From positions 166,987 to 230,986 of the forward strand of contig JAEHCM010000001.1 of the NCBI GenBank assembly GCA_020696365.1: a DNA stretch of 64,000 nt, written 5' to 3'. Shown here piece after piece: positions 7,920 to 64,000 of the stretch (positions are counted from its first letter, which is position 1; each line of letters opens with the position of its first letter). The translations under genes and the position numbers were made by a program. This DNA is from Thermoplasmata archaeon. Its GTDB lineage: Archaea; Thermoplasmatota; Thermoplasmata; UBA10834. The notes beneath the pieces are model-generated. The model did no database searches and was not told the origin of the DNA. It saw only the letters and a list, made by a program, of their open reading frames with translations.

Positions 7920-7960
7920 AGAGGGCCGTGTAATCCGTCCCCTTCGAATCATGATGAAGT

Positions 7961-8056
7961 GGGCCCGATCGGATTTGAACCGATGACCAATTGGTCACTC
8001 AGGGACCAACAAGTCCCTTATGAGCCAATCGCTCCGCCGGACTAAGCTACGGGCCC
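7961..8056 (-). tRNA. tRNA-Met/Ile2 (anticodon CAT) with a 23-nt intron between positions 37 and 38
   Basis: Minus-strand cloverleaf with 7-bp acceptor GGGCCCG/CGGGCCC, D-stem GCTT/GAGC, anticodon stem ATTGG/CCAAT and loop CTCATA-[intron]-A, and T-arm ATCGG-TTCAAAT-CCGAT. No encoded CCA. Confidence 0.8.
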
Positions 8057-48130: not shown

Positions 48131-48228
48131 AGGGGGGGGTGGCTCACGAGGCGTCTTCATCTCGTTCCAGCATTTCGTGCGTGGATTCGGATATTCTTAA
48201 ATATGAACATCATTTTGGAGGTATCCAA

Positions 48229-48334
48229 GCTGAGGTAGCCCAGCCCGGTAAGGCGCGAGCCTGGAGTCTTGATGATTCAAGCCAGTCAGCTCGTGGCGCT
48301 CTGCGCCTCGGGAGTTCAAATCTCCCCCTCAGCG
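48229..48334 (+). tRNA. tRNA-Ser (anticodon GGA) with a 21-nt intron after position 37
   Basis: Acceptor GCTGAGG/CCTCAGC with discriminator G, 3-bp D-stem, anticodon stem CGAGC/GCTCG with loop CTGGAG-[intron]-A, long variable arm GGCGC-TCT-GCGCC, and T-arm GGGAG-TTCAAAT-CTCCC. Confidence 0.75.
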
Positions 48335-48400
48335 CCTTGTCATATCTTGCTGTTCTCGTGTGGACTGGAAGATTCATACGCGGAACGCAGATTTGCGATG

Positions 48401-48408
48401 TTATAAAA
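48401..48408 (+). promoter_or_regulatory. putative TATA box (TTATAAAA) for the receiver/kinase gene
   Basis: AT-rich octamer about 50 nt upstream of the ATG at 48460, immediately downstream of tRNA-Ser. Confidence 0.3.
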
Positions 48409-48459
48409 TACCCCCCCAGGCTATGGCTATTTCGGTCGGTTCGAAAGGATTTGAAATGG

Positions 48460-48756
48460 ATGAGCGACCCTGAGATCAATGTTCTGCTTGTGGACGACGA
48501 GCCCGAGTTCGCGGAGCTCGTGCATTTCTTTCTAGGCAAGCAACACGATATCACCGTTCATTCGACGAACACTGTCACGAAAGCGCTAGAAATGATTGAT
48601 ACGACGGAGTACGACGCCATTGTGTCCGACTACATGATGCCCGAGATTAACGGCATAGACTTCCTGAAAATACTGAGGGCAAAAGGCAGTTCGATCCCCT
48701 TCATCCTCCTGACGGGTCGGGGGAGGGAGGATGTCGCCGTCCAGGCCCTTAACTAG
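48460..48756 (+). CDS. response-regulator receiver domain truncated by an in-frame TAG
   Basis: NVLLVDDEPEF ... DAIVSDYMMPEINGIDF ... ILLTGRG ... AVQALN then TAG. The stop falls where the receiver alpha4-beta5 GADxY element normally follows. Confidence 0.6.
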   Translation: MSDPEINVLLVDDEPEFAELVHFFLGKQHDITVHSTNTVTKALEMIDTTEYDAIVSDYMMPEINGIDFLKILRAKGSSIPFILLTGRGREDVAVQALN

Positions 48757-48771
48757 GGGGCGGATTTCTAC

Positions 48772-49899
48772 GTGGAGAAGCACGGAGACCCGAAGACGAT
48801 ATTCGCTGAGCTGGCCAACGCCACGAAGCAGTGCGTTGAGAAGAGGGTGGCGCTCGAATCACTCATGGAAACCCAGAATCGATTCGAGTCTTTCATGGAT
48901 CATAGTCCTACCATATCCTTCATAAAGGACCTTCAGGGTCAATATGTGTTCGTGAACAGGGAATACGCGATTATGCTCAATATCCGCAAAGAGGATATCG
49001 TCGGCAGGACAGATTTAGATCTTTGGCCCAAAGCAGCGGCCGAGTCGTTCCGCGAAGCCGACAAGAGAATAACATCATCGGGAATCGGCGAAAAGTTCTC
49101 TGAGGTCATTGAGCAGTCGGACGGCGTGCACGAGTATCTGACTTTCAAGTTCCCCCTCGTCAACTCAAAGGGGAAGGGCACTCTCCTCGGGGGTGTGTCC
49201 TTTGATGTTACGGACATGAAGAGGTACGAGTCAGCGCTTGAACTGGCGAACACCAAGTTAGGAATCCTCGGGGATCTGACCCGCCATGACGCCATCAACC
49301 AGGTCTCTGTGCTTGAGGGGTGGCTGTCACTACTGAAGGAAGATGAATGCGCCGCGGAATTGAGGAACCATCTGGAGAATATGACCGTTGCGACCAAAAC
49401 CCTCAGGGAACAGCTCGAGTTCGCTGGAGAGTATGAAGCTGTGGGGGCGGATAATCAGGCATGGACCGATATCCAGGAGGCTTGCGTGGACGTTTGGGGC
49501 AAGATGGCGGTAGATGACATCATGTTCGAATGCCAATGCTCTGGGTTTGAGGTGCTAGTCGATCCGATGTTCCCCAAGGTGATTCGAAACCTCGTGGATA
49601 ACACTGCGAGGCACGGAGAGGGTGCGGAGATGATCCGCATCTTCTGCCAGGAGACACCTGACGGCCTACGCCTGGTCTATGAGGATGACGGTGCGGGAAT
49701 CGCCTCCGAGGCGAAGGTCAAGATCTTCGACAAAGGCTTCGGAACCAACTCTGGCTTTGGCCTCTACCTGATTCGGGAGTTGCTGAGGATAAGCGATGCG
49801 AGACTCCGCGAGGTTGGCGAGCACGGCAAAGGAGTCCGCTTCGAGATTGTTTTCCCTGAGGGCAGGTATCGCCGCAAGATGGCTAGCGAGAAGGGGTAA
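48772..49899 (+). CDS. PAS-domain sensor histidine kinase, in frame with the upstream receiver through the TAG
   Basis: The frame continues G-ADFYVEKHGDP (the receiver C-terminus), then a PAS domain, a HisKA-like H-box LTRHDAINQ, and HATPase_c (NLVDNTARHG, DDGAGI, GFGLYL). The listed start is GTG at 48772. Confidence 0.7.
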   Translation: MEKHGDPKTIFAELANATKQCVEKRVALESLMETQNRFESFMDHSPTISFIKDLQGQYVFVNREYAIMLNIRKEDIVGRTDLDLWPKAAAESFREADKRITSSGIGEKFSEVIEQSDGVHEYLTFKFPLVNSKGKGTLLGGVSFDVTDMKRYESALELANTKLGILGDLTRHDAINQVSVLEGWLSLLKEDECAAELRNHLENMTVATKTLREQLEFAGEYEAVGADNQAWTDIQEACVDVWGKMAVDDIMFECQCSGFEVLVDPMFPKVIRNLVDNTARHGEGAEMIRIFCQETPDGLRLVYEDDGAGIASEAKVKIFDKGFGTNSGFGLYLIRELLRISDARLREVGEHGKGVRFEIVFPEGRYRRKMASEKG

Positions 49900-51245: not shown

Positions 51246-51851
51246 TCAGCGCCGTGAGATGTGGTCCACGACTTCAGCGAGGTCATCCTGCGTGTTGACA
51301 TTGATGAAGCTCTCGAGATGGGGGTCGAACCGCCTGATGTCTTCCTCGTCCACTGTTGCCAGATTGAGCAAATGGTATGCGTCTTTTGGCCTTCTCCGCC
51401 CAGAGGCGACGGTCTGTTCGAAAGCATCCAAGCAGGTCTTCCGGCGATAGCAGGCGTGGAGTGGTTCCAGATAGCCACGAACGAAGGGCACCGCCCCGTC
51501 CTTGCCTTCGCCGTTGTTCACGACAGCCCTGCACATCTCTGGCCTGAGGAGAGGGGTGTCACACGGGCTGACGACAACATAATCGCCTCCTGCCGCCCTC
51601 ATCGCGGTTGTCAACCCATGGAGTGGCCCGATCCCTTCTCTCTCGTCTTCGACTATTATCGTGTCATTTGAGAGGAATCTTGCATATTCCTCAGCTCGTC
51701 CTCCCGCTACGGCCACAACGACCTCGTCTGCCAGCATCCGCATCGTCGCTACTACTCTGCTGACCATTGGCTCATCGTTGAGCATGACAAGCCCTTTCTC
51801 CTGGCCGAAACGTGTGCTTGTTCCGCCGGAGAGCACAATCCCCGTCAGCAT
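51246..51851 (-). CDS. mobA: molybdenum cofactor guanylyltransferase
   Basis: GIVLSGGTSTRFG nucleotide-binding motif and PCDTP. The start is taken at the internal Met; the ORF extends to 51989. Confidence 0.75.
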   Translation of the reverse strand: MLTGIVLSGGTSTRFGQEKGLVMLNDEPMVSRVVATMRMLADEVVVAVAGGRAEEYARFLSNDTIIVEDEREGIGPLHGLTTAMRAAGGDYVVVSPCDTPLLRPEMCRAVVNNGEGKDGAVPFVRGYLEPLHACYRRKTCLDAFEQTVASGRRRPKDAYHLLNLATVDEEDIRRFDPHLESFINVNTQDDLAEVVDHISRR

Positions 51852-51972
51852 GTCCACGGGATATCTGGTCGTTCCACATGAACTTTGTCTGGAGAACAGG
51901 TTGGTTAGTGCCCCGGTTTGGCCAAAAAGGTTATAATGGCCGACCATTTTCGAACGCTTGCGGGAGAGCGAG

Positions 51973-53019
51973 ATGCCGAAGATAACCATGGCTCAGGGAG
52001 CTGGCGGGGAGAGGATGCAGGAGTTCATCCGTGAGTTCGTGCTGAAAGAGCTTGAGCACGATTTCGGAGATATTCCGCTGGGAGCCCTCGACGACGCCGC
52101 AGTTGTCGATGGCATCGTGTTCACCACTGACTCATACACCGTCAAACCGTTGTTCTTCCCCGGAGGCGACATCGGCACGCTGGCGGTGGCTGGTACTGTC
52201 AATGACGTCTCCGTCATGGGTGCGACGCCCATAGCGCTGTCGTGCGGAATGATAATCGAGGAGGGGTTCTCCGAGGACGACCTTCACCGTGTCATGAGCA
52301 GCCTGAACAGAACCTCAAGATCGGCAGGTGTGAGGATAGTCACGGGCGATACCAAGGTGGTTGAGAAAGGCGCGGTCGATGAATTGTTCATAAATACGAG
52401 CGGGATCGGGAGACGTTCTATCCACCTCGACGCGAATCTGGAGCGTGTCCGTGCTGCGCGGGAATTTCTATGGGATTGGCCAAACGACTCGGGAGTCGCT
52501 GATGGCGACGTTCTCATCGTCTCGGGATCGATAGGCAACCACGGGGTCGCACTACTGTCATTCCGTGAGGGATATGGGTTCGAAACCGAGGTCCAGACCG
52601 ATGCGGCTCCCTTGAACCACCTGACCGAGTCAGCGGTGAAGGTCGGAGGCGTAGTCGCGATGAAGGATCCCACGCGGGGTGGCCTGGCAAATCTCCTGAA
52701 CGAATGGGCCGAGAAGTCCAAGGTAGGTCTCGTCGTGCGAGAAGAAGATATCCCTATCGACGACCCCGTCCTGGCTGCGTGCGAGATGCTGGGCATCGAC
52801 CCTCTCGAGATTGGAAACGAGGGCAAGGTCGTCCTGGCGGTGGTGCCCGATGCGGCTGAGGAAGTCCTGAAGGTGATCAGGAAGACTCCGGAGGGATCGA
52901 ACGCGCGAATCTTTGGCAGAGCCTCGAAAGACGTCGAGGGCGTACTGCTAGAGACGCAGACCGGGGGGAAGCGGTTGGTCGAGCCTCCCGTGGGAGACCC
53001 CGTCCCGAGGATATGCTAG
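51973..53019 (+). CDS. hypE: [NiFe] hydrogenase maturation protein HypE
   Basis: AIR-synthase-related fold, N-terminal ITMAQGAGG, C-terminal PRIC tail typical of HypE. Confidence 0.8.
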   Translation: MPKITMAQGAGGERMQEFIREFVLKELEHDFGDIPLGALDDAAVVDGIVFTTDSYTVKPLFFPGGDIGTLAVAGTVNDVSVMGATPIALSCGMIIEEGFSEDDLHRVMSSLNRTSRSAGVRIVTGDTKVVEKGAVDELFINTSGIGRRSIHLDANLERVRAAREFLWDWPNDSGVADGDVLIVSGSIGNHGVALLSFREGYGFETEVQTDAAPLNHLTESAVKVGGVVAMKDPTRGGLANLLNEWAEKSKVGLVVREEDIPIDDPVLAACEMLGIDPLEIGNEGKVVLAVVPDAAEEVLKVIRKTPEGSNARIFGRASKDVEGVLLETQTGGKRLVEPPVGDPVPRIC

Positions 53020-53033
53020 CGGTCTATGCCGAT

Positions 53034-53522
53034 TTAATCATCTGAGACGAACTCTGATACGATCCTATCCACAATGGATGGGATGGCGGCTGCGACCGGA
53101 GGGGTCATGCTCTCGCTGACGTTCACGATGTCGTCGGCCTCGATGGCGACGAAGAAGACCTCCTTCGGCATCTTCTCCGGCACGATCTTTCTCCCCATAG
53201 CAAGCGCCGTCGCAATGTTGATGCCGTGAGGCGACGACCCGTGCACGGTCCTCTCGAACGCACTCTCTTCGAGCACATGGAATTCCCCTGGTCTCCCCTC
53301 GTCCGTCACGATGGCGTCCACGATGACCACTCTGTCGTAGCCCAGAACCATGTCCAGAAGCTCCAAACCGCTCGCGGGCAGCTCCTCCACATCCACGCCT
53401 TCGAGCCCGAGGTCCCTGAGCTTTCTCGCAACGTGAATGCCCACACCATCATCGGAGAGTATCGGGTTACCGACGCCCACTATCAACGTCCGGGGACGAT
53501 GCCGTTCATCAGAGATGCTCAT
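53034..53522 (-). CDS. hydrogenase maturation endopeptidase (HycI/HyaD/FrhD family)
   Basis: LIVGVGNPILSDDGVGIHV N-terminus and conserved Asp/His metal ligands. Confidence 0.8.
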   Translation of the reverse strand: MSISDERHRPRTLIVGVGNPILSDDGVGIHVARKLRDLGLEGVDVEELPASGLELLDMVLGYDRVVIVDAIVTDEGRPGEFHVLEESAFERTVHGSSPHGINIATALAMGRKIVPEKMPKEVFFVAIEADDIVNVSESMTPPVAAAIPSIVDRIVSEFVSDD

Positions 53523-53594
53523 GGAGATACCTCACCGCCTAGCATGGTGGAAAAACATGTCGTCGAGGGGAGCCGCCCCTCGTGTGACAACACA

Positions 53595-55109
53595 TCAGAA
53601 GTTTCTCACGGTCTTCAGCTTCGACCCGTCGGCGCGTCTCACGTTTATCTCAAGGGCCGGAGAGCCGTTCAGAGCGTGTGTTCCGCAGGAGTTGCATGGG
53701 TCGTAGCATCGGAACGCCATCTCGACCTTGTTCAGCAGTCCTTGGGAGACTTCGCCGTTCTTGATCAAGGCCTTCGCCGCCTGCACGACGCTCGTGTTGA
53801 TCGCAGCGTTGTTGTTCGTCGTCGCTACGATCATGTTGATCTTCGTGCATAGCCCGTCCTTGTCCGAGGCGTAGTGGTGTATCAGCGTACCTCTGGGAGC
53901 TTCGCATATGCCCACGCCTTCCGTCGGCTCCTTGAACTCGCCTCGGGTGTCATCGCTCGTTATGACATCGTCGGTGACCAGCTCGAGCATCCTCTCCGTA
54001 GCGTGCTGCAGCTCGATCACCCTCGCCCAGTGGAACGCGAGCGTGTGATGGACTGGTCCTGTCACTCCCAAGTCCTTCACGGTCTTGGCCAATGCCTCGT
54101 ACTCCGCCTGTGCGAGAGGGGTTGTGTAGCCCTCGCAGACGTTTATCCTGCCGAGGGGTCCGACCCTGTATATCCCGCTTGACGGGCCTGTGGTGAAACC
54201 GTTCCAGCCGACGCTCTTCAGATATGGCATCTTCATGTATGACCACGGTTCGACGTGCTCGGCGATGACGTCGAGATACTCGCTCGGCTTGAACTTGACG
54301 ACCTCCTTGCCGGCCTGGTCGACGACCCGTATGTCTCCGTCGTAGAAGTTGCTCTTGTTGTCCTTGTCGACCATGCCCATGTAGTATGTCTCGAGGTAAT
54401 ACGCGTCCTGGTTCAGGATGAGTCCGAGGTAGTCCTGGTTGGCCAGCACGACATCGTGGAACAGCTTCGTCGTGAACTTGCCGAACTCGACGCACGACCT
54501 GGCCATCTCCTCCATCTGAACGCGCTCCTCCTCGCTTATCTGCTTCGAGACGCCGCCGGGTAGGCCAAAGCACGGATGCGTGGCCCTCCCTCCGACGATC
54601 TCCTGCACCTTCTGACCATACGAGCGGTGCTTGATGACCTCTGCGCCGATCTCGACGCCGACGGCATCCACCACTCCCAGGATATTCCTCTTGTTGGATG
54701 GCGCTGACGGTCCCAGCACGAAGTCGGGCGCTGCGAGCGCGTAGAAGTGTGCTATGTGGCTGTGGGTGTACTGTCCCATGTAGAACAGCTCTCTCAGTTT
54801 TGTCGCCGTTTCCGTCGGGGTGGCGTCGAACACCGCGTCAAGCGTCTTGGTCGACGCTATGTGATGCGCGGCCGGGCAGACGCCACACAGCCGGTTGGTG
54901 ATTATGGGCAGTTCCTGCACATGTCTGCCGATGCAGAACCTCTCGAAGCCTCTGAGTTCAGGAACTTGCCAGTAGGCGTTGGCCACGTTCCCCTCGTCGT
55001 TCAGGAAGATCTCGATCTTGCCGTGTCCTTCGAGCCTCGTGACCGGGTCGATCGTGAGTTTCTTCTCGGTCGTCTTGGTTGTCGTATCGTTGATTATCGG
55101 TCCGGACAT
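53595..55109 (-). CDS. mvhA: [NiFe] hydrogenase large subunit (Mvh/Vht-type, F420-non-reducing)
   Basis: N-terminal RLEGHGKIEI, proximal CxxC (RLCGVCPAAH) and C-terminal DPCNSCGTH Ni ligands, plus a C-terminal extension. Confidence 0.85.
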   Translation of the reverse strand: MSGPIINDTTTKTTEKKLTIDPVTRLEGHGKIEIFLNDEGNVANAYWQVPELRGFERFCIGRHVQELPIITNRLCGVCPAAHHIASTKTLDAVFDATPTETATKLRELFYMGQYTHSHIAHFYALAAPDFVLGPSAPSNKRNILGVVDAVGVEIGAEVIKHRSYGQKVQEIVGGRATHPCFGLPGGVSKQISEEERVQMEEMARSCVEFGKFTTKLFHDVVLANQDYLGLILNQDAYYLETYYMGMVDKDNKSNFYDGDIRVVDQAGKEVVKFKPSEYLDVIAEHVEPWSYMKMPYLKSVGWNGFTTGPSSGIYRVGPLGRINVCEGYTTPLAQAEYEALAKTVKDLGVTGPVHHTLAFHWARVIELQHATERMLELVTDDVITSDDTRGEFKEPTEGVGICEAPRGTLIHHYASDKDGLCTKINMIVATTNNNAAINTSVVQAAKALIKNGEVSQGLLNKVEMAFRCYDPCNSCGTHALNGSPALEINVRRADGSKLKTVRNF

Positions 55110-55115
55110 CTTGAA

Positions 55116-56129
55116 TCACCCCTTCCTCTTGCGTTCCTTCACAGTCCTCTTGAGGAGGGACTTGGGGAGCGTGAAGGCGTAGAAAGTCCCGATCGGGTCT
55201 TTCACCTGCATCATAAGTTCTATTATCTGCTCCTCACTTAACTTTGACTCCGAATCCGTGATGTTGAGGATCGAAGCTAGCGCGCTCAGCATGCTACCTC
55301 CGTGGTCCATAACGGCCTTCGTCGGGCCCATGCAACCCCTACAGGGCATGTTGGCGACCGGGCACATCGCACCACAGCCCGCGCGCGTCGCGGGCCCTAT
55401 GCATATTATACCCTGGTCCAACAGGCACTTCTTAGGGTCGGCCTTGATCTCATAAGCCTGATAGATCCTGTCGATCCTCCGGTCCGTCTCGACCCGTTCC
55501 CGGTCGCATTCGTCGCAGAGCGTCTTGTCGGATGCGATGACAGTGCCCTTCGGCGGCAGAGGCGCCCCCTCCTTCACGTGCTTCAGGACAGCGCCGACTG
55601 CCACCATGATGAGGTCGACCGTAGGCGGACAACCGGGCATGAAGTAGTCGACATCTACGACCTCGTCAAGGGTCTTCACGGTGTCGTAGAATTCCGGCAG
55701 GGTCAACTCTCCCTCTGGCACCTTCACACTCGTCTGCGGCGTCACGAATTCGGGATTGTCGGTCGACTCGGTGTCCTTGTAGACTGTCTGGAACACCTCC
55801 TCCTTGTTCGTCACATTCGCGAGGCCCGGCGTCCCGCCGAAGCATGCGCACGATCCGAAGCTTATCATTATGACGGACTTCTCCCTCAGCACCTTCGCGA
55901 CATGTTCGTTCTCGCTGTTCCTTATCGCTCCGTTGTAGAACGCTACCGTGATTGACTTGTCCGGCATCTGCTCCAATTCGTGTAGCTTGCCGTCGAAGCC
56001 TATCGGCCAGAACACCACCTCGGCTATGGCGTGCAAATCCAGTATACTTGCGTCTATGTCCAGGAGCGCGACGTCGCATCCCCCGCAGCCCGCGCCCCAG
56101 TACTGCGCAATCTTGATCTTATCTGCCAT
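55116..56129 (-). CDS. mvhG: [NiFe] hydrogenase small subunit (F420-non-reducing type)
   Basis: YWGAGCGGCDVA N-terminal cluster motif, FGSCACFGG, and distal cluster cysteines. Confidence 0.85.
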   Translation of the reverse strand: MADKIKIAQYWGAGCGGCDVALLDIDASILDLHAIAEVVFWPIGFDGKLHELEQMPDKSITVAFYNGAIRNSENEHVAKVLREKSVIMISFGSCACFGGTPGLANVTNKEEVFQTVYKDTESTDNPEFVTPQTSVKVPEGELTLPEFYDTVKTLDEVVDVDYFMPGCPPTVDLIMVAVGAVLKHVKEGAPLPPKGTVIASDKTLCDECDRERVETDRRIDRIYQAYEIKADPKKCLLDQGIICIGPATRAGCGAMCPVANMPCRGCMGPTKAVMDHGGSMLSALASILNITDSESKLSEEQIIELMMQVKDPIGTFYAFTLPKSLLKRTVKERKRKG

Positions 56130-56131
56130 GT

Positions 56132-56515
56132 TCAGCTCACCTCCTTGGTTGAAGCGTCACTCCTCGGTACCGCCTTGTACTGCGGCGACTGTCCAGTCAT
56201 GCCGACCTGCTCGATCAGCCTCCACCGCTTGAGGGCTATTATGTGCCTGACTATCTCGGGCTTCGGCAGGCCTGTCGCGTCGTGCAGTTCGTGCACGGTC
56301 TGCGGACTGGCTTCCATCTGCAGTAGGAGCATGTTCCTCTCGAGCTCCACTGCCGCGGCCTTCTGCAGTATGAAACTGTATCGCCCGTCGGTGATCGTCT
56401 CCCCGAACACGTTTTCCTCAGTGGTCAGCGAGCCCTTCTTTCCGAGCAGCCAACGTATCCTCTCTCCCTCGAGAGTCCTCAGCGCTGCGTGTATCTTGAC
56501 CTCTCTCGGGTTCAT
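56132..56515 (-). CDS. small wHTH-like protein co-transcribed with mvhD (unknown function)
   Basis: 127 aa; homologous to the C-terminal domain of the MvhD-fusion protein at 60014..60310 (LLLQMEASPQTVHELHDATGLPKPEIVRHIIALKRWRLIEQ versus LILELARIRPISVKQLGMVMEVPTDRILRHIVLLRQNSMIAME). Confidence 0.5.
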   Translation of the reverse strand: MNPREVKIHAALRTLEGERIRWLLGKKGSLTTEENVFGETITDGRYSFILQKAAAVELERNMLLLQMEASPQTVHELHDATGLPKPEIVRHIIALKRWRLIEQVGMTGQSPQYKAVPRSDASTKEVS

Positions 56516-56517
56516 CC

Positions 56518-56979
56518 TCAGTCACCACCTCTCATGGGGGACGGTCCGATCTCCTCAATCGTCTTCGTGAACTCGACCATCGTCTTCTGGAACTTCTCGC
56601 CCTCTCCGGCCGAGATCCACTCAAGCCTCAGCCTGTCAGGGTCATATCCGAACTGCTGGAGGAGTATCCTCAGAAGCGCGATCCTCCTGCGGGTCCTGTA
56701 GTTGCCTCCTATGTAGTGGCAGTCCGCCGGATGGCAGCCTGCGACCAACACGCCGTCGGCCCCTTTCTGGATCGCCCTCAGGACGAACTCCGGGTCCACT
56801 CTCGCGGAGCACATTACCCTTATCACCCTGAAGTGCGGGGGCATCTGCATCCTGCTGACACCCGCCAGGTCCGCGCCTGCGTAAGAGCACCAGTTGCAGC
56901 AGAACACGATTATCTTCGGCTCGAAGTCCTCGCCCTCGGCCTTCTCCTCGCTCTGGGCGCTCGGCGTTGTGCTGCTCAT
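56518..56979 (-). CDS. mvhD: MvhD (methyl-viologen-reducing hydrogenase delta subunit, [2Fe-2S])
   Basis: CCNWCSY...RVMCSARV...AGCHPADCHY pattern of MvhD. Confidence 0.85.
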   Translation of the reverse strand: MSSTTPSAQSEEKAEGEDFEPKIIVFCCNWCSYAGADLAGVSRMQMPPHFRVIRVMCSARVDPEFVLRAIQKGADGVLVAGCHPADCHYIGGNYRTRRRIALLRILLQQFGYDPDRLRLEWISAGEGEKFQKTMVEFTKTIEEIGPSPMRGGD

Positions 56980-59900
56980 TGCTTCACCTCCTGGTTCTCC
57001 GCGGCATCCTCAAGCGCCGCGTCTATCATCGCCACAATCTGCTCGTCACTGAAGCCCATCTGTGTTAGCGCTCCAGATGGACATGCGCCCACGCACGCTC
57101 CGCAGCCCTTGCACAGGCCCACGTTGATATCGAGGGTCTTCTTCTTCTCGTCCTTTTTGTCGGGGACGATCTCGAGCGCCTTGTACTCGCACGTCGGGAC
57201 ACATATGCCGCAGCCGTCGCAGAGCGTCTCGTCGAGGAACGCGACGATGCCCTCCGCCTCGAGGGTCGTCTTCGACAGTACGGTCATCGCGCGCGATACG
57301 GTGGCCAGACCCTGTCCGATGCACTCGTCCAGGAACTTCGGCCCGTGCGCCAGACCGGCGACGTACACTCCCTCCGTGGCGAAGTCGACCGGCCTGAGTT
57401 TCATGTGCGCCTCAAGGAAGAATCCCTCCTTCGTAATGGGCACCTTCAGCATCGGCGCGAGCTCCTCGGAGCCGTCACTCGGCCGCGTGCCTGCGGCGAG
57501 CACCAGGTTGTCAGGCGTGAGCACGACCTCCTTGCCAGTGTCCTCGTCCGTCACGCGCACCTCGATCTTGCCGCCCTTGTCCTCGACCTGCGGCTTGGTG
57601 CCGTCTTCGAACCTTATGAAGGTCACGCCCTTCTCGGCAGCCTCTTTGTAGTACTTCTCGCGGAAGCCGTAGGTCCTGATGTCCCTGTAGAGAACGAAGA
57701 CCTTCGCATCGGGGTCCTTCTCCTTCACCTTGATCGCCGCGGTCATCGTGCCCGTGCAACACACGCGCGAGCAGTTCGGATGGCCTTCCTCACGCGAGCC
57801 GACGCACTGTATGAACGCGTACGAGTCTCCCTTGACCTCGCCCTTCTTGAGCTTGTCCTTGAACTCGAGCAGGGTCATCACGCCGGGGTTTTTGCCGTAG
57901 AGGTACTCGCCATCCGGCTTGTACTCCTGCGCCCCAACGGCGACTATGACCGTGCCGTGCTCCATCTCCTCGCCGGACTCGAGCGTCGTCTTGAAGTTGC
58001 CGACATACCCGTCGATGCTCTTGACCTTCTTGCCGGTGTAGACAGTTATGTTCGGGTCGGAGGCGACCTCCTTCGCGAGCGACTGGACGTACTCCACCGG
58101 GTCGTCCCCGGACGGGAGGTAGTGCAGCTTCAGCAGGGTGCCGCCCAGCTCTTTCTCCTTCTCGACCAGATGAACCTTGACGCCCTGCTTCGCCAGCTCG
58201 AGCGCCGCCACCATGCCGGACGCGCCTCCGCCGACCACGAGCGCCTGCTGGTTGACATTGATTGTCAGGTTCTCCAGCGATTCCAGCAACCTGGACTTCG
58301 CAACGGCCATGCGCACGAGATCCTTCGCCTTCTTCGTCGCAGCTGCGGGTTCGTGCATGTGTATCCACGAGCATTGGTCCCGTATGTTCGCCATCTCGAA
58401 CAGGTACGCGTTGAGCCCGGCCTCCTTGATGGTGTTCTGGAACAGCGGCTCGTGCGTCCTGGGCGTGCAGCTCGCGACGACGACCCTGTTCAGGTTGTGC
58501 TCCTTCACCATCTGTTTGATCTTCTCCTGCGTGTCCTGCGAGCAAGTATACAGGTTCTCCTCCGCATACACGACGTTCGGAAGGGACCTCGCGTACTCAG
58601 CCACCGACGGCACCTTGACGACGCCGCCTATGTTGATCCCGCAGTGACACACGAACACGCCTATCCGCGGCTCCTGCTCCGAGACGTCTATCTCGGCAGG
58701 ATACTCCTTCTTCGTGACGAGCGTGTCCCTGGCAGATGCGATCTCGGACGCGGCCTTCGCCGCCGCCCCGCTCGCCTCCGCGACTGTCATCGGGATGTCC
58801 TTCGGCGACGAGAACGCGCCACTGACGAACACTCCCGGACGGGATGTGCTGACAGGGGTGAACGCCCCGGTCTCGCAGAAACCGTCGTCGTTCAGGCTGA
58901 AATTCATGACCTTGCTGAGCGCCTCGGCGTCCTCCGGAGGCCTCAGGCCCACTGCGAGCACGACCAGCCCGAACTCCTCCTCCTTGGGCTCCCCCTTCTC
59001 CACGTACTTGAGTATCAGGTTCTTCGTCTTCGGGTCCTCGAACACGGATGCAACCCTGGAACGGACGAACTCGATGCCGTACTCGTCCTTGGCCCTGTTG
59101 TAGTACTCCTCGAATTCCTTGCCGAAGGCCCTCATGTCCATGAAGAATATCTTGGGCTTGATGTTCCCGCCATGCTCCTTGGCTATGATGGCCTCCTTGA
59201 TGGAGTACATGCAGCAGACGCCGGAACAGTACTCGTTGCCGACCTTCTCGTCCCTCGAGCCGACGCATTGTATGAACGCTATCTTCTCGGGTATGTCCCC
59301 GTCCGAAGGTCTCATGACCGTGCCGAAGTGCGGTCCTGTGGCGCTGAGTATCCTCTCGAACTCGATGCTCGAGACGACGTTCTGGTACACGCCGTACCCG
59401 TACTCCGCCTTGAGCCTCGCGTCGAACTCGTCGAAGCCAGGCGATACGATGATCGAGCCGACCTTGATCTCGAAGTCCTTCTCCTTCTGATCGTATTCGA
59501 CCGCGTCGGCCTTGCACTCCTCCGCGCATATGCCGCAGCCGATGCACTTCTCCGGGTCGATCGAGTAGATGAGGGGCACTGCCTGCGGGTACTTGACGAA
59601 TATCGCCTTCCGCACCTTCGTGTTCTCGTTGTACTCGTCAGTCGTCTCTATCGGACACTTCTGGGCGCAGCTACCACAGCCCGTACATTTCGAGGCGTCC
59701 ACTCTGAGCGCCCTCTGCTTGCCGGTCACCGTGAAGTTGCCCTCCTGTCCGTCGACTTTGACGATGTCCGCGTTCGTTATCAGATCGATGTTGTGGTGCC
59801 TCCCGGTCGCGACGAGCTTCGGCGCCATGATGCACATGGCGCAGTCGTTCGTCGGGAAGGTCTTGTCGAGCTGGGCCATCGCGCCGCCTATGCTCGGTTG

Positions 59901-60017
59901 CTTCTCGACCAGGTATACTTTGAACCCTGAGTCGGCCAGGTCGAGCGCCGACTGCAGGCCTGAGATGCCGCCTCCGACGACCATGACCGCTCCAATCTTG
60001 TCAGTAGCTGCCATCAC
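56976..60017 (-). CDS. hdrA: tandem HdrA-like flavoprotein (QmoA-like FAD/ferredoxin module fused to a complete HdrA)
   Basis: 1013 aa. The N-terminal half is an HdrA FAD domain (VVGGGISG, DKTFPTNDCAMC, two inserted CxxCxxCxxxCP) lacking the N-terminal Cys cluster. Then a complete HdrA: VFVCHCGINIGG, second FAD site VVGGGASGMVAA, CSRVCCTG, and C-terminal 2x[4Fe-4S]. Confidence 0.8.
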   Translation of the reverse strand: MMAATDKIGAVMVVGGGISGLQSALDLADSGFKVYLVEKQPSIGGAMAQLDKTFPTNDCAMCIMAPKLVATGRHHNIDLITNADIVKVDGQEGNFTVTGKQRALRVDASKCTGCGSCAQKCPIETTDEYNENTKVRKAIFVKYPQAVPLIYSIDPEKCIGCGICAEECKADAVEYDQKEKDFEIKVGSIIVSPGFDEFDARLKAEYGYGVYQNVVSSIEFERILSATGPHFGTVMRPSDGDIPEKIAFIQCVGSRDEKVGNEYCSGVCCMYSIKEAIIAKEHGGNIKPKIFFMDMRAFGKEFEEYYNRAKDEYGIEFVRSRVASVFEDPKTKNLILKYVEKGEPKEEEFGLVVLAVGLRPPEDAEALSKVMNFSLNDDGFCETGAFTPVSTSRPGVFVSGAFSSPKDIPMTVAEASGAAAKAASEIASARDTLVTKKEYPAEIDVSEQEPRIGVFVCHCGINIGGVVKVPSVAEYARSLPNVVYAEENLYTCSQDTQEKIKQMVKEHNLNRVVVASCTPRTHEPLFQNTIKEAGLNAYLFEMANIRDQCSWIHMHEPAAATKKAKDLVRMAVAKSRLLESLENLTINVNQQALVVGGGASGMVAALELAKQGVKVHLVEKEKELGGTLLKLHYLPSGDDPVEYVQSLAKEVASDPNITVYTGKKVKSIDGYVGNFKTTLESGEEMEHGTVIVAVGAQEYKPDGEYLYGKNPGVMTLLEFKDKLKKGEVKGDSYAFIQCVGSREEGHPNCSRVCCTGTMTAAIKVKEKDPDAKVFVLYRDIRTYGFREKYYKEAAEKGVTFIRFEDGTKPQVEDKGGKIEVRVTDEDTGKEVVLTPDNLVLAAGTRPSDGSEELAPMLKVPITKEGFFLEAHMKLRPVDFATEGVYVAGLAHGPKFLDECIGQGLATVSRAMTVLSKTTLEAEGIVAFLDETLCDGCGICVPTCEYKALEIVPDKKDEKKKTLDINVGLCKGCGACVGACPSGALTQMGFSDEQIVAMIDAALEDAAENQEVKQ

Positions 60018-60880
60018 TGCTCACCTCCGATCTCGATGGTCTTGTAGAGCGGTGTGAACCCCTCCGGGTGCTCCATCGCGATCATGCTGTTCTGTCTGAG
60101 TAGGACGATGTGCCTGAGTATCCTGTCCGTGGGTACCTCCATGACCATGCCCAGCTGTTTCACCGATATGGGTCTTATCCGTGCCAACTCGAGTATCAGC
60201 GCCCTCTCGAATTCCTCCTCCGTTGCGACATCTATGATGCCGCTGAGTTTCTCGGGATCGAGCTTGTCACCGTACGCGTTCCCCTTGCTGAGGAGGTTGA
60301 ACTCCTTCCCAACCAGGGCCTTCAATCTGAAAGTCTCGGAGGCGTCGTCAGCGGCTGCGACCTTCGCCTTCATCATATCATCCGTGTGTATCTTGCTCGG
60401 TCCTAGTTTCTGGATCTCCTCGGTGAATTCCGTTACGACCTTGGAGAACTTCTCTCCCTCGGACGCCGAGACCCATTCGAGCCTCAGCCGCCCTTCGTCG
60501 ACCCCCGCTTCTCTGAGCAGCCTCTTCATCAGGTTCACGCGCTTCTCCGTGTGGTAATTGCCCGTCATGTAGTGACAGTCGTTCAGGTGACATCCTCCGA
60601 TGAGGATGCCGTCGGCACCAGCCTCGAAGACTTCGAGTACAATGTGTGGGCTCACCCTCGTGGAGCACATCACCCTGACGAGGCGGATGTTCGTCGGATA
60701 CTGGAACCTGCTGACGCCGCATAGGTCGGCGCCTGCGTACGAGCACCAGTTGCAGAGGAAGCCGACGATCTTCGGCTCCCATTCCTTGTCGGCCTCGGCC
60801 TTCTTCTTGCCGTGATGAGCGGTGTGATGCTTCTCCGTCATGTCCTCACACCTCCTCCAAGGCCGCTTTTGCCTCCGCAA
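60014..60880 (-). CDS. MvhD-like [2Fe-2S] protein fused to a C-terminal wHTH-like domain
   Basis: N-terminal FLCNWCSY...RVMCSTRV...GGCHLNDCHY (MvhD) with a C-terminal domain of about 100 aa homologous to the ORF at 56132..56515. The likely start is the internal Met at 60841. Confidence 0.75.
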   Translation of the reverse strand: MRRQKRPWRRCEDMTEKHHTAHHGKKKAEADKEWEPKIVGFLCNWCSYAGADLCGVSRFQYPTNIRLVRVMCSTRVSPHIVLEVFEAGADGILIGGCHLNDCHYMTGNYHTEKRVNLMKRLLREAGVDEGRLRLEWVSASEGEKFSKVVTEFTEEIQKLGPSKIHTDDMMKAKVAAADDASETFRLKALVGKEFNLLSKGNAYGDKLDPEKLSGIIDVATEEEFERALILELARIRPISVKQLGMVMEVPTDRILRHIVLLRQNSMIAMEHPEGFTPLYKTIEIGGEQ

Positions 60881-62720
60881 GCAGCTGCTGATCGGTGTAA
60901 TGTGTCATGGTGATGGCACCCTCCGGGCAAGTGGCACCGCAACAACCACAGCCCTTGCACGCTGCGACGATCACCTCGGTGATACCCTCTTCGTTCTTCC
61001 TCAGGGCGCTGTATGGGCACGTTTCGACGCATGTCCCGCAGCCAGTGCACTTCGTCTCGTCGACTATTGAAGTGAGCGCCTCGGCCTGGACGAACCCGTT
61101 CGCAAGAGGTATCGATGCCCTCGAGGCAGCAGCAGCAGCCTGAGAGACGGCCTCCGAGATGTCGGCCGGTCCTCTGCAAGTCCCGCAGACGTACACTCCA
61201 TCGGTCGCGAAGTCCACCGGTCTCAGCTTGACATGCGCCTCTTGGAAGAAGCCGTCTTGTCCGAGCGGGACCTTCAGCAGCTGCGATAGTGTGGCAGCGT
61301 CTGGCTGGGCCACGAGCGGAGTCGAGAGTATGACCAAGTCAACGGGCATCGTCCTCTCCATCTTCAGCGTCTCGTGGAAGTATCCGACCTCGAGCTTTCC
61401 GTCCTTAACGGATACCTTCGGAAGGTTGTCCGGTAGGTATCTGACGAACTTGACTCTCTTCTCCCTAGCCTTGTTGAACTCGAGCTCGTGTTCGACGCCG
61501 TACGACATGACGTCCCTGTTGAACACCGTGACCTCGACACCACTGGACGGAGCGGCCTCCTCGCCGGCCTCATCCTCGTCACCTCGGCCTCTGCCCCGCC
61601 TTCTTCGCCTTCTGTCAGACCCCTCTTCCTCCGCCTTCTTCTCGGCGGCGGGTTCTTCCACGACCTCTCCTGTCTCCGCTGCCTTCTCCTCGGTCACGCC
61701 GAGCATGTTGTCGCGATTCTCGGCAATGTTTATCGCGCTCTTGATCGCGACGTTGCAGCAGACCCTGGAGCAGTATGAGACCTTCTGCCCTCTCGCGCCA
61801 ACGCATTGTATGAAAGCGACGCTCTTCAGCTTGGGCAGTTCCTTCTTGTTGCAGAGCTCCTCGAACTCTGTGGATGTGATGACGTTCGGGTGTTCCTTGT
61901 ACCCGAACAACCCCTCGGGTACCAGCGGGACCGCGCCCGTGGCCACGATGATGGTGCCAACCTTGACTTCTTTGGCCTCAGCCCCGTCCCCTCCTATGGA
62001 GATATCATAGTTGCCTATGAACCCCTCCACCGATGCGACGTGCGAGTTGAGGTGCTGTGTGATGTTCTTGTGGGCGTTCACCTTGTCGATGAGTGGCTTG
62101 ATCGTCTCGTTGGCGCTCTTGGTGGTCATCATGAGGCCGTGCAGGTTCTTCACGAACCCTCCGAGCTCCTCGTCCTTCTCGACGAGGTGCACCGGGAATC
62201 CCATGTTCGCCAGCGACAGCGCTGCCGTCATCCCGGACACGCCGCCTCCGACGACGAGCGCGGTGGGCGTAACATCGACCTTCGTCTCCTCCTGGGGCTC
62301 CAGGAATCGGGCTCTCGCAACACCCATCCTGACCAAGTCCTTCGCCTTCTGGGTCGCCTTCTCCTTCTCTTTCATGTGGACCCACGAGCAGTGCTCACGG
62401 ATGTTGACGAACGTGAACATGTACTTGTTCACGCCAGCAGCCTCGCATGTCCGTTGGAAGAGAGGGGCGTGCGTCCTGGGTGTGCAGCTCGACACTATCA
62501 CTCTGTCGAGGTTGTGTTCCTTGATGCTATCCTTGATGTTGTTGAGACCGTCCTCGGCACATGTGTAGAGGTTGTCCGCTGCGTACGCAACGTCCGGGAG
62601 GGTTGACGCATACTCGGTCACGGCCTTCACATCGACAAAGCCGCCTATGTTGGACCCACAGTGGCAGATGAATACTCCGATCCGTGGTTTCTCCTTCTCG
62701 GTGCTTGTGTTCTCGGGCAT
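60846..62720 (-). CDS. hdrA: heterodisulfide reductase subunit A-like flavoprotein
   Basis: VFICHCGSNIGG N-terminal Cys domain, FAD site LVVGGGVSGMTAA, CSRVCC, and C-terminal ferredoxin CTGCGTCVETCP ... CKGCGCCGATCP. Carries a low-complexity insertion around 61535..61715. Confidence 0.85.
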   Translation of the reverse strand: MPENTSTEKEKPRIGVFICHCGSNIGGFVDVKAVTEYASTLPDVAYAADNLYTCAEDGLNNIKDSIKEHNLDRVIVSSCTPRTHAPLFQRTCEAAGVNKYMFTFVNIREHCSWVHMKEKEKATQKAKDLVRMGVARARFLEPQEETKVDVTPTALVVGGGVSGMTAALSLANMGFPVHLVEKDEELGGFVKNLHGLMMTTKSANETIKPLIDKVNAHKNITQHLNSHVASVEGFIGNYDISIGGDGAEAKEVKVGTIIVATGAVPLVPEGLFGYKEHPNVITSTEFEELCNKKELPKLKSVAFIQCVGARGQKVSYCSRVCCNVAIKSAINIAENRDNMLGVTEEKAAETGEVVEEPAAEKKAEEEGSDRRRRRRGRGRGDEDEAGEEAAPSSGVEVTVFNRDVMSYGVEHELEFNKAREKRVKFVRYLPDNLPKVSVKDGKLEVGYFHETLKMERTMPVDLVILSTPLVAQPDAATLSQLLKVPLGQDGFFQEAHVKLRPVDFATDGVYVCGTCRGPADISEAVSQAAAAASRASIPLANGFVQAEALTSIVDETKCTGCGTCVETCPYSALRKNEEGITEVIVAACKGCGCCGATCPEGAITMTHYTDQQLLAEAKAALEEV

Positions 62721-62726
62721 GTCTGT

Positions 62727-64000
62727 TCACCCTCCTCCTGAATTGGCGAGGACTTCCGCTGCCTTGGCAGCCGCACTCGATCCCTGGGCAACGGATTCCG
62801 GGATGTCGGCCGGTCCTGCGCAATATCCCGCGAGGTATATCCCGGGCAGGTCGCTCTTGCCGAAGTCCAGGATGCTGTCGGGAGACTCGAAGAAACCGAA
62901 TTCCGTTAGCTTCAACCCGAGCTTCTTCGCCAGTTCGATAGTGTCCTTCCTGGGAACGAGCGTCGTCGCGAGCACGACTGCGTCGAACTCCTCCGTCTGC
63001 TGCTTGCCCCCCACGTCGAAGACGACCACCGGATTGTTGGTCTCCGCGTTCTCCTGTACGGTTGCATCGGAGTTGATGTAGCTGACTCCGTAATCGCTCT
63101 TAGCCCTCTCGATGTACTCGTTGAAGCCTTTCGCGCAGGCCCTCATGTCCTTGTAGAATATCGTCGAATTGGCGTCTTCATAGTGTTCCCTGGCGAGCAT
63201 AGCCTCCTTTGTGGCATGCATGCAGCACACCGAACAGCAATAGGGATGCCCCACCTGCGGGTTTCTCGATCCGACGCACTGGATGAACGCCAGTTTCTTC
63301 GGATGCTCCCCATCGGATCGCCTCACTATGTGTCCTCCAGTGGGTCCCGAGGCGTTGATCATACGCTCATACTCCATCGCCGTGTAGACGTTGGGATACT
63401 TCTTGTAGCCGTACTCTGAGGCGGATGTCGGGTCCCACACATCGAAGCCCGTGGCGACTATGACCGCCCCCGGATTCAGCGTTACGACCTGGTCCTTCAT
63501 GTTGTAGTCGATGGCATTGGGGCCACACGCAATGGCGCACGCCTCGCACTGGGAGCACGGTCCGCAGTTCACACATCGAGCCGCCTCCTTGAGCGCCTCC
63601 TCCTTCGTGAACACCCTCTCGACCTCCTCGAAAGAGGTCTTGCGCTTATCATCCGGAATGTGTTGCCTGAGGACACGCTCGCTCTTCGGGATATCTCCGT
63701 CCATTCGCGCCTTGATGTCTTCGAGCGTGATCACATGCTCATTCTTCTCCTCTGGTTCCGGCTCGATGCTCTCCCCGTTCAACGACTTCTCGATGTATCG
63801 AGCGGCCTTGTTGCCAGCCGCGAACGCCTCGACAGCCGACGCGGGTCCTGAAACGGCATCTCCGCCTGCGAAGACGCCTGGGATGTTGGTGCTTAGGTTG
63901 CCGGGGTTGACCTCCAGGGTCTTCCACTTCGTGACCGCTAGATCCTTCGAGCCAAGGGCGTCCAGGTCCGGCGCCTGGCTCACTGCTGGGATGACCGTGT
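62727..64000 (-). CDS. partial (5' end beyond window): HdrA/QmoA-like FAD-ferredoxin module preceded by an NAD(P)H-oxidoreductase-like C-terminal GD motif
   Basis: The visible part has GVFAGGDAVSGPASAVEAFAAGNKAARYI (end of a pyridine-nucleotide-disulfide oxidoreductase fold), then CVNCGPCSQCEACAIACGP, then an HdrA-like FAD domain (AFIQCVGSR ... YCCSVCCM). The frame stays open to the window edge. Confidence 0.6.
   Translation of the reverse strand, partial: TVIPAVSQAPDLDALGSKDLAVTKWKTLEVNPGNLSTNIPGVFAGGDAVSGPASAVEAFAAGNKAARYIEKSLNGESIEPEPEEKNEHVITLEDIKARMDGDIPKSERVLRQHIPDDKRKTSFEEVERVFTKEEALKEAARCVNCGPCSQCEACAIACGPNAIDYNMKDQVVTLNPGAVIVATGFDVWDPTSASEYGYKKYPNVYTAMEYERMINASGPTGGHIVRRSDGEHPKKLAFIQCVGSRNPQVGHPYCCSVCCMHATKEAMLAREHYEDANSTIFYKDMRACAKGFNEYIERAKSDYGVSYINSDATVQENAETNNPVVVFDVGGKQQTEEFDAVVLATTLVPRKDTIELAKKLGLKLTEFGFFESPDSILDFGKSDLPGIYLAGYCAGPADIPESVAQGSSAAAKAAEVLANSGGG

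Follow-up and report, generated by a model that had tools for sequence, protein, structure and literature searches.

The 64,000-nucleotide (nt) window analysed here, taken from contig JAEHCM010000001.1 of a Thermoplasmata archaeon, ends with nine minus-strand genes (53034-64000) that encode an [NiFe] hydrogenase of the Mvh type together with several HdrA-type flavoproteins. This locus is best read, with a probability of about 0.7, as an Mvh hydrogenase joined through MvhD adaptors to asymmetric HdrA pseudo-dimers, this reading being one of structure and organisation. As judged from related genomes, the window would cover roughly two thirds of the second unit in a conserved, hyp-flanked island of 15 genes and ~21 kb, carried by an uncultured sediment Thermoplasmata archaeon.

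All nine open reading frames (ORFs) are contiguous and were recovered where the first-pass annotation, made from the letters of the window, had placed them in one collinear run. They are listed in the direction of transcription, followed by the neighbouring gene on the opposite strand; sizes are in amino acids (aa) and wH stands for winged helix.

62727-64000, minus strand: hdrL (type III HdrA), 3' part, running off the window edge (Pfam Pyr_redox_2, Fer4_20)
60846-62720, minus strand: hdrA' (m2-type HdrA), 624 aa (phmmer against 5odc_A, 3e-133)
60014-60841, minus strand: mvhD-wH fusion, 275 aa from ATG (Pfam FlpD 5.9e-53; 5odc_D 1.4e-53)
56976-60017, minus strand: fused double HdrA (type II, BamE-type), 1013 aa (phmmer against 5odc_A, 1.5e-215)
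56518-56979, minus strand: mvhD, [2Fe-2S] adaptor, 153 aa (Pfam FlpD 2.5e-55; NCBIfam VhuD 1.4e-38)
56132-56515, minus strand: stand-alone wH protein, 127 aa (Pfam HTH_IclR, HTH_5)
55116-56129, minus strand: mvhG, [NiFe]-hydrogenase small subunit, 337 aa (Pfam Oxidored_q6; 5odc_E MvhG 4e-72, full length; NCBIfam VhuG 9e-66)
53595-55109, minus strand: mvhA, cytoplasmic group-3-type [NiFe] large subunit, 504 aa (7t2r_D 2.8e-114; 5odc_F MvhA 3e-113)
53034-53522, minus strand: maturation endopeptidase of the HycI/HybD/FrhD family, 162 aa, last gene of the operon (Pfam HycI 1.6e-11; TIGR00072 108.7 bits vs a cut-off of 47.45)
51958-53019, plus strand: hypE, convergent with the operon and downstream boundary of the island (TIGR02124 4e-116, 387.6 bits vs a cut-off of 251.6)

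The junctions between the nine genes range from -4 to +6 nt, with the sole exception of 72 nt ahead of the protease gene, and because of this tight spacing the run looks like a single operon. Conservation was followed in relatives, i.e. species-representative genomes scanned with the partial hdrL ORF, whose loci were numbered (L001 onwards) and read as 21-kb slices. Between the window and L001, L004 and L005, the ratio of non-synonymous to synonymous substitution rates (dN/dS) lies between 0.04 and 0.17 across all nine genes, indicating purifying selection: 0.05-0.11 for hdrL, 0.07-0.10 for hdrA', 0.10-0.14 for the fused HdrA and 0.08-0.11 for the 127-aa wH protein. With such values for each gene, none of the nine is a pseudogene, which rules out pseudogenised extra hdrA copies. 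The first impression of an expanded multi-flavin Mvh/HdrA locus with two MvhD copies was borne out: two FlpD domains are present, and the extra HdrA genes are intact and conserved.

Domain maps of the HdrA proteins were obtained by mapping onto the solved M. wolfeii HdrA (5odc_A) combined with a residue-level MAFFT alignment, and revealed two types of module. The m1-type comprises the first half of both fused proteins (the 1013-aa protein of the window and a 1011-aa paralogue read in L001) and the core of HdrL, while the m2-type comprises the second half of both fused proteins and the 624-aa HdrA'. The iron-sulfur (Fe-S) domain at the N-terminus and the ferredoxin domain at the C-terminus are absent from m1 and present in m2; conversely, the Cys194/Cys197 pair and the inserted ferredoxin domain, with its eight cysteines, are present in m1 and absent from m2. 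Every module keeps the GGGxxG motif binding flavin adenine dinucleotide (FAD) and the four cysteines of the FAD-proximal cluster. As for the bifurcation hallmark Glu356/Lys409, it is retained by the m1-type modules and by HdrA', and replaced in the second half of both fused proteins (Lys/Thr759 in the 1013-aa protein, Gly/Ala in its paralogue). Module identity is 44-56% within a type vs. 32-37% between types. Altogether, the window contains four HdrA-type flavin domains, one more than the three modules counted in the first-pass annotation.

The 1013-aa fused HdrA matches 5odc_A in three pieces by phmmer, residues 12-380, 448-601 and 855-1005 corresponding to HdrA 147-517, 2-155 and 506-653, respectively. 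Its module 1 (residues 1-447, ~58677-60017, GGGISG at residue 15), labelled QmoA-like in the first-pass annotation, shares 49% identity with M. wolfeii HdrA across 421 residues and consists of an FAD domain with Cys59/Cys62, an inserted 2x[4Fe-4S] ferredoxin domain, the Glu and Lys274. Module 2 (residues 448-1013, ~56979-58676, GGGASG at residue 596) has the N-terminal Fe-S domain as well as the C-terminal ferredoxin domain, together with an FAD domain devoid of Cys194/197, of the inserted ferredoxin domain, of Glu356 and of Lys409 (Thr759). The two halves share only 34% identity, vs. 56% with the same-type half of the paralogue, so that the internal duplication initially proposed for this protein is ruled out. 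Since the halves are 34% alike and 44-56% identical to same-type modules elsewhere, the 1013-aa protein fuses two distinct HdrA classes.

Concerning HdrA', it possesses the N-terminal Fe-S domain and a C-terminal 2x[4Fe-4S] ferredoxin domain, and its FAD domain has neither Cys194/197 nor the inserted ferredoxin domain (in the phmmer alignment to 5odc_A, residues 242 and 248 of the query correspond to HdrA 234 and 315), with Glu356 and Lys409 (here Lys327) being kept. By their domain composition, HdrL and HdrA' are the same m1/m2 pair as the fused HdrA, left unfused, and the HdrA copies of the locus are complementary halves, not redundant paralogues. In agreement with these domain maps and the alignment, no HdrA-like protein of the window has all four HdrA domains. 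One MvhD gene directly follows each HdrA pseudo-dimer; given that HdrA binds the input module through its N- and C-terminal regions jointly with VhuD, one MvhD per pseudo-dimer fits a unit with a single docking site.

A separate observation on HdrA' is a low-complexity insert of ~58 residues (residues ~335-392; 61545-61718, minus strand), located right after the helix equivalent to that of Lys409. It consists of an acidic stretch followed by ERRRRRRGRGR and is kept in the archaeal orthologues examined, most of them with the RRRRRRGR core (L010 and L032 deviate), and is absent from the two aligned bacterial orthologues (L028 and L033).

The partial ORF at the window edge, first described as an HdrA-like flavoprotein, is by its similarity an HdrL (type III HdrA) carrying the tail of an NfnB/GltD-like module, and the NAD(P)H port predicted for the system lies in that gene. 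It is 97% identical over 422 aa to a 901-aa orthologue in L001, along which a segment matching HdrA 143-290, an NfnB/GltD-like stretch (residues 153-627) and a segment matching HdrA 293-567 succeed one another. In this orthologue, the NfnB/GltD-like module of 475 aa splits the inserted ferredoxin domain of HdrL; its cluster region is of the Fer4_20 type, GAGPAG serves as FAD motif and GGGNAAMD...YRR is a second Rossmann motif. Its closest matches are NfnB/GltD-like NADPH-binding portions of solved enzymes, namely 9bov_A (3e-132), NfnA 9n5u (2e-125) and the NfnI large subunit 5jca_L (3e-96). The window includes the last ~77 residues of the module (~63768-63998) and everything downstream, that is, the later half of the inserted ferredoxin domain (CVNCGPCSQCEACAIACGP) plus the C-terminal half of the thioredoxin-reductase (FAD) domain, and the FAD and NAD(P)H motifs of the NfnB-type module fall beyond 64000. 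HdrL has no C-terminal ferredoxin domain. Its gene is followed after 6 nt by hdrA' and then by mvhD-wH, an association also seen in bacterial loci. An NAD(P)H module near the start of the operon, for which the first-pass annotation had suggested looking, is therefore present as hdrL. The third substrate, called unclear at that stage, is accounted for in part by the partial ORF itself.

Two forms of MvhD are found in the window. The 153-aa protein has the canonical cysteines FCCNWC...GCHPADCHY, and the mvhD-wH fusion, whose start is most likely the ATG at 60841 (275 aa) rather than the TTG at 60880, combines an MvhD domain (residues 19-152, matching 5odc_D) with a C-terminal wH domain (~170-270). 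No match to the C-terminal 120 aa of the fusion was obtained in the PDB sequence search. The 127-aa protein is homologous to this C-terminus (29% identity over 98 aa, E 4e-12) and has a winged helix-turn-helix fold (HTH_IclR 26.3 bits and HTH_5 22.9 bits, both vs a cut-off of 22), and by this similarity it corresponds, in split form, to the fusion's C-terminal domain. The family is small, the two-domain wH profile having just 241 representative matches among 1.84 billion proteins, and 71 of its 77 matches longer than 160 aa (92%) carry an MvhD domain; the names borne by its cluster members are generic. The 127-aa protein contains no cysteine, and its gene lies 2 nt from mvhD and 2 nt from mvhG, a position shared by all relatives. 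Because of the fusion pattern with MvhD, the lack of cysteines and the fixed place between mvhD and mvhG, it is read as a subunit, which probably docks between MvhD/HdrA and the hydrogenase, by analogy with BamF.

Two further observations concern the wH-fused MvhD. In 17 out of 17 orthologues it reads FLCNWC...ADLCG, vs. FCCNWC...ADLAG in the three other MvhD paralogues of the island; in the window (60719-60757, minus strand), leucine takes the place of the CC pair's first cysteine and a new cysteine appears 12 residues downstream. This shift may be relevant to the redox-active Cys/Sec close to the [2Fe-2S] cluster, as discussed for MvhD and BamF. The MvhD-wH fusion family also occurs in Candidatus Heimdallarchaeota archaeon (Asgard), as the 260-aa protein UCG04241.1 (P0205), annotated as 'hydrogenase iron-sulfur subunit'.

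With respect to the hydrogenase, MvhA displays the Ni-Fe cysteine motifs RLCGVCPAAHH and DPCNSCGTH and a C-terminal extension of 26 aa, predicted to be cleavable. Its closest solved relative is the large subunit of 7T2R (7t2r_D), and its NCBIfam score falls under the VhuA equivalog cut-off (403 vs. 800 bits). By homology, group 3c-type [NiFe] subunits and a maturation protease are present, as in MvhADG.

An exact look-up of the 624-aa HdrA' sequence gave no record, and MvhA and MvhD were met only on contigs of 2-4.5 kb, so the surroundings were read in relatives. The scan with the partial ORF recovered Thermoplasmata metagenome-assembled genomes (MAGs) at 73-97% aa identity and many loci of Chloroflexota and Desulfobacterota at 42-50%. 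The reverse complement of the window, from 64000 backwards, aligns with L001 9999-21266 at 93.4% nt identity, up to the window edge, and the gene order is invariant in nine Thermoplasmata species representatives (L001-L008 and L012). In these nine relatives, the genes upstream of hdrL are hdrA, hdrC, hdrB, mvhD, a fused hdrA and an mvhD-hdrC-hdrB fusion (533 aa in L001), followed by a spacer of ~160 bp. The most upstream hdrA is canonical, with all four domains, and the two HdrB-type proteins have two complete CCG motifs each. HdrC/HdrB-type genes thus occur twice within 9 kb upstream in the nine relatives and the window itself holds none, so that the absence of HdrBC noted in the first-pass annotation was an effect of the window edge: in the relatives, the mvhD-hdrC-hdrB fusion stands past 64000, across the ~160-bp spacer. 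Since nucleotide identity is 93% and synteny is conserved, HdrB and HdrC genes, along with the other upstream hdr genes of the relatives, are expected in this genome as well. In L085, hypF, hypA and hypD were found upstream of the canonical hdrA.

From these comparisons we infer the following order for the island: hypF-hypA-hypD, hdrA hdrC hdrB mvhD, fused-hdrA mvhD-hdrCB, hdrL hdrA' mvhD-wH, fused-hdrA mvhD wH, mvhG mvhA protease and hypE. The full island includes seven HdrA-type FAD domains, four MvhD domains and one NAD(P)H module, and a backbone of hdrA, mvhD, hdrCB, hdrL, hdrA', mvhD, mvhG, mvhA and hycI is also found in many Chloroflexota loci. The spacer between mvhD-hdrCB and hdrL (L001 8406-8567 and its equivalents in L002-L008) contains an invariant CAACGAAACACATAA(A/G)A element ~100 nt ahead of the hdrL start. 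The CAACGAAACACATAA element may act as an internal archaeal promoter or operator, in which case the island would fall into two transcription units; the window holds the second of these apart from its first ~480 codons, which would lie beyond 64000.

Gene content, domain maps, cofactor motifs, conservation and synteny suggest a scheme of subunit pairing, electron path and substrates in which MvhAG would plug through the MvhD [2Fe-2S] adaptors into the asymmetric HdrA pseudo-dimers. The m2-type half would be the side of MvhD docking and electron entry, and the m1-type half that of the bifurcating FAD and of the low-potential exit. H2 would be oxidised at MvhA and the electrons passed via MvhG to MvhD, from which they would enter at the C-terminal ferredoxin domain of m2 and move on to the FAD of the paired m1 half. 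After bifurcation, the low-potential electron would leave for ferredoxin by a composite site formed by the N-domain and Cys59-62, together with the inserted ferredoxin domain; in HdrL, it would pass into the NfnB-like module, acting as the NAD(P)H port. The high-potential electron would exit by the FAD-proximal cluster. The wH domain, which is joined to one MvhD and stands alone next to the other, would serve as a docking element, as in BamF.

For the operon of the window alone, the simplest balanced chemistry would be a reversible conversion between H2 and ferredoxin + NADP(H), which at low H2 pressure in the sediment could work as an H2-evolving confurcation. This specific H2/NADP(H)/ferredoxin reaction is put forward tentatively, its chances being judged somewhat short of even. 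The upstream HdrBC-type modules would provide two further high-potential outlets, with a thiol/disulfide or a protein such as an electron transfer flavoprotein (ETF, as for BamD) as acceptor. More speculatively, and with a low probability, the 15 genes might build one hydrogenase-fed super-complex made of a canonical HdrA dimer and three pseudo-dimers, with four MvhD adaptors, two of them with wH docking, and at least two bifurcations in series. Such a super-complex would enable the interconversion of H2, NADPH, ferredoxin and a thiol/disulfide or protein acceptor in a sediment archaeon that is not a methanogen, and would be a multi-bifurcation [NiFe] hydrogenase machine without a characterised counterpart.

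The first-pass annotation had presented the locus as a departure from canonical clusters; its architecture in fact has published precedents. The reference system is MvhADG-HdrABC of M. wolfeii and M. thermolithotrophicus (PDB 5ODC; Hdr-Vhu-Fwd super-assembly), whose MvhA, MvhG and MvhD all match here, at the E-values listed above. Likewise, the HdrA domains and all cluster-binding cysteines are recognisable, and the relatives possess the canonical hdrA-hdrC-hdrB-mvhD set upstream. However, no HdrA of the window is a four-domain protein able to form a symmetric homodimer, the island adds its seven FAD domains, four MvhD domains and NAD(P)H module, no MvhB polyferredoxin is found here, and the host is not known as a methanogen. 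Besides, all HdrA copies of the window miss the NCBIfam HdrA/HdrA2 equivalog cut-offs (1030 vs. 1100 bits and 742 vs. 1400 bits).

As regards the fused HdrA, the nearest precedent is the class II benzoyl-CoA reductase of Geobacter metallireducens, in which flavin-based bifurcations are coupled in series (bioRxiv 10.64898/2026.04.10.717634). The same work describes BamE as a fused HdrA dimer whose bifurcating FAD has Cys59-Cys62 and Lys280 and whose second, non-bifurcating FAD has Gln768. BamF is an MvhD homologue that exceeds the usual length by more than 100 residues and docks the input module with its winged helix, and BamD is HdrBC-like and hands electrons to ETF, not to a disulfide. Compared with the published description, the fused HdrA of the window is collinear with BamE (Cys59/Cys62, Lys274 and Thr759), the mvhD-wH fusion is comparable to BamF in length and layout, and the HdrBC-like fusion found upstream in the relatives would, like BamD, be a high-potential outlet. 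The input, in contrast, is a [NiFe] hydrogenase and not BamGHI, no BamBC tungsten enzyme was found, the winged helix is a separate gene in one of the units, and there is no selenocysteine.

HdrL was described in Desulfobacterium autotrophicum (2009). The type III proteins of this species (HdrL1-3), of S. fumaroxidans, of anaerobic methanotrophic archaea of the ANME-1 group (HdrA9-11) and of Bathyarchaeota (A10) have the same GltD/NfnB-like insertion, an FAD/NAD(P)H module of ~475-500 aa with two [4Fe-4S] clusters, inside the inserted ferredoxin domain; a second hdrA and then mvhD follow, with a link to mvhGA in some cases. Here, by comparison, the host belongs to the Thermoplasmata, the core is of the type with neither N-domain nor C-terminal ferredoxin domain, wH adaptors and a fused type II HdrA are encoded in the same operon as hdrL, some sister species lack the insertion and there is no selenocysteine. 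HdrA types I, Ia, II and III have been surveyed, type III clustering with mvhADG in Bathyarchaeota (Microbiol Spectr 2025), fused HdrA has been reported in many archaeal phyla, and hdr/mvh homologues of non-methanogenic Thermoplasmata have been noted without dissection. In ANME archaea, tandem or fused HdrA follow a heterodimer logic (HdrA5/6, 12/13 and 3/4), next to the NfnB-inserted HdrA9-11 of ANME-1 (Chadwick et al. 2022). The same complementary split of N-domain and Cys197, giving a heterodimer or a self-contained pseudo-dimer, is seen here and in type II proteins; the domain order is nevertheless permuted relative to ANME HdrA3/4, the Cys197-bearing half coming first as in BamE, and the partner is Mvh, not FdhB/Molybdop. 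Moreover, Lys409/Glu356 is conserved in 75% of the type II sequences of methane-metabolising archaea (Microbiol Spectr 2025), whereas the second FAD domain here has neither residue. Finally, the NAD(P)+/ferredoxin bifurcating hydrogenases (NiFe-HydABCSL, 7T2R) and NfnAB share the chemistry proposed here, H2 <-> ferredoxin + NAD(P)H, as a functional analogy only, the function being inferred in the present case. The HdrL insertion is closest to NfnB-type modules, with no NfnA partner here, and the bifurcating module would be of the HdrA type and not of the HydBC/Bfu type.

Several points weigh against the interpretation of the locus as a hydrogenase feeding HdrA pseudo-dimers with an NAD(P)H port. 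The NfnB/GltD-like insertion is missing from the protein at the hdrL position in L009 (779-2077), L011 (2261-3556) and L012 (9614-10909), which is a 431-432-aa HdrA core. These insertion-free proteins in three sister species imply that NAD(P)H is not essential to the ancestral module, so the port is, on this distribution, a lineage-variable add-on, gained or lost within the lineage. HdrA' retains Lys409/Glu356, and a rule of one bifurcating flavin per pseudo-dimer may therefore fail for the HdrL pair. Within its own operon, the window's fused HdrA lacks a partner of the HdrC/B type, which leaves its high-potential outlet unassigned. The likeness to BamF is one of description and not of sequence comparison, and the upstream half of the island is deduced from the relatives rather than read in this genome.

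Among the other explanations, the one given most weight is a plain MvhADG-HdrABC heterodisulfide reductase locus in a methanogen allied to Methanomassiliicoccales, with CoM-S-S-CoB as acceptor and the extra HdrA as accessory isoenzymes. It would account for the canonical four-domain hdrA, hdrC, hdrB and mvhD upstream in all relatives, for mvhGA closing the cluster, for the complete CCG motifs of both HdrB-type proteins, and for the names of Methanomassiliicoccales or Methanosarcinales borne by some more distant loci. The first-pass annotation had reasoned that hdrBC immediately upstream, with a single functional hdrA and the others pseudogenised, would reduce the locus to this ordinary type; hdrBC does lie upstream in the relatives, but the dN/dS values are those of functional genes for every hdrA. 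Indeed, the three extra pseudo-dimers are structurally specialised and under strong purifying selection, the HdrA copies and MvhA (403 vs. 800 bits for VhuA) fall below the methanogen equivalog cut-offs, and the hdrL-hdrA'-mvhD-mvhGA backbone is common in non-methanogenic Chloroflexota and Desulfobacterota. According to the literature, lineages basal to Methanomassiliicoccales retain hdr/mvh without mcr, and no methanogenesis marker was seen among the ~30 window ORFs scanned, which is weak evidence. We consider a methanogen locus unlikely, and, as suggested earlier, the substrate may not be a heterodisulfide at all. A system of sulfur metabolism (DsrC, Qmo or sHdr type), in which HdrBC would act reductively or oxidatively on a tri- or disulfide carried by a protein, in line with a proposal for Syntrophobacter HdrABC/HdrL, appears distinctly less probable. 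The CCG motifs are intact, HdrABC/HdrL of S. fumaroxidans are abundant only under sulfate-reducing conditions, with DsrC as proposed acceptor, and hdrL1-mvhD adjoins dsrABC in D. autotrophicum. Yet the cluster is embedded among hydrogenase maturation genes, and no dsr, apr, qmoC, lipoate-binding-protein or sulfur-carrier genes were found in the scanned ORFs of 43-64 kb, in selected ORFs further upstream or in the scanned flanks of the relatives; in particular, the scanned neighbourhood of the island has no qmoC or apr-like ORF.

The resemblance of the locus to BamDEF also raises the question of a dearomatising system like class II benzoyl-CoA reductase (BamB-I), or of another reductase driven to very low potential by a BamDEF-like module. 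The collinearity of the fused HdrA with BamE (Cys59/Cys62, Lys274 vs. Lys280 and, in the second FAD domain, a residue other than Lys), the BamF-like MvhD-wH adaptor and the upstream MvhD-HdrCB fusion, which resembles BamD, all point in that direction. Nevertheless, the input module is a [NiFe] hydrogenase, the flanks consist of hyp genes, and no BamB (tungsten enzyme of the AOR family), BamC or HydBC-like BamGHI was detected in the scanned ORFs of 43-64 kb, among the genes lying upstream of hdrL in the L001 island, or within 10 kb upstream of that in L085. A dearomatising enzyme was rejected because no such Bam genes turned up there, and the idea as a whole is given very little credence. A different question is whether the 127-aa protein, along with the MvhD fusion's C-terminal domain, might be an ArsR/IclR-type transcription factor regulating the operon, the fusion possibly sensing redox state via its [2Fe-2S] cluster. 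The HTH_IclR and HTH_5 matches of the 127-aa protein are above the cut-offs, and public annotations label the stand-alone orthologues as ArsR family regulators. On the other hand, the family is tiny and its longer members are nearly all fused to MvhD, the gene keeps its 2-nt distance to both mvhD and mvhG in every relative, the 127-aa protein has no cysteine or obvious ligand site, and the winged helix-turn-helix of BamF is a protein-protein interface in the cryo-electron microscopy structure of class II benzoyl-CoA reductase. A regulatory role is accordingly held to be rather improbable, slightly more so than the methanogen locus, and a docking role for the wH elements is preferred.

Every building block of the locus has already been described. 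What is new is the presence of HdrA of types I, II and III in one hyp-flanked hydrogenase island of Thermoplasmata, as deduced in part from the relatives, the BamE-like rather than ANME-like domain order combined with the loss of Lys409/Glu356 in the second FAD domain, and an MvhD-winged-helix adaptor in split form. Complexes with HdrL (type III) or fused (type II) HdrA occur widely among the anaerobic archaea and bacteria of sediments, and none that is coupled to a hydrogenase has been studied biochemically. The locus is compact and strongly conserved, brings together all three HdrA architectures, an NAD(P)H port, adaptors resembling BamF and a single [NiFe] hydrogenase, and would be a good candidate for expression or structural work on how Thermoplasmata that are starved of energy and probably not methanogenic balance their pools of H2, NAD(P)H and ferredoxin. 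Two warnings for annotation follow as well: HdrABC/MvhADG matches in such MAGs should not be read as evidence of heterodisulfide metabolism, and the MvhD-associated wH subunit is liable to be mislabelled as an ArsR regulator.

Some other features of the window deserve mention. A NikR-like nickel-responsive regulator is encoded at 43065-43466 (plus strand), ~10 kb from the [NiFe] hydrogenase, with a score of 100.6 bits, just under the subfamily cut-off of 111 bits. A PAS sensor histidine kinase is found at 48772-49899, and mobA (51246-51989) overlaps the start of hypE. Three tRNA genes were found, and two of them, with lengths of 97-106 nt, probably contain introns, a feature that points to an archaeon: the one at 7959-8056 (minus strand) received no anticodon assignment from ARAGORN, and that at 48229-48334 (plus strand), detected by Rfam alone, is overlapped by a 205-aa ORF (48139-48756) which is probably spurious. 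Finally, a lysyl-tRNA synthetase of class II (bacterial type) is encoded at 33245-34729 (minus strand; 664.5 bits vs NF001756). Most archaea use the class I enzyme, and a class II copy would thus be unusual in an archaeal genome.

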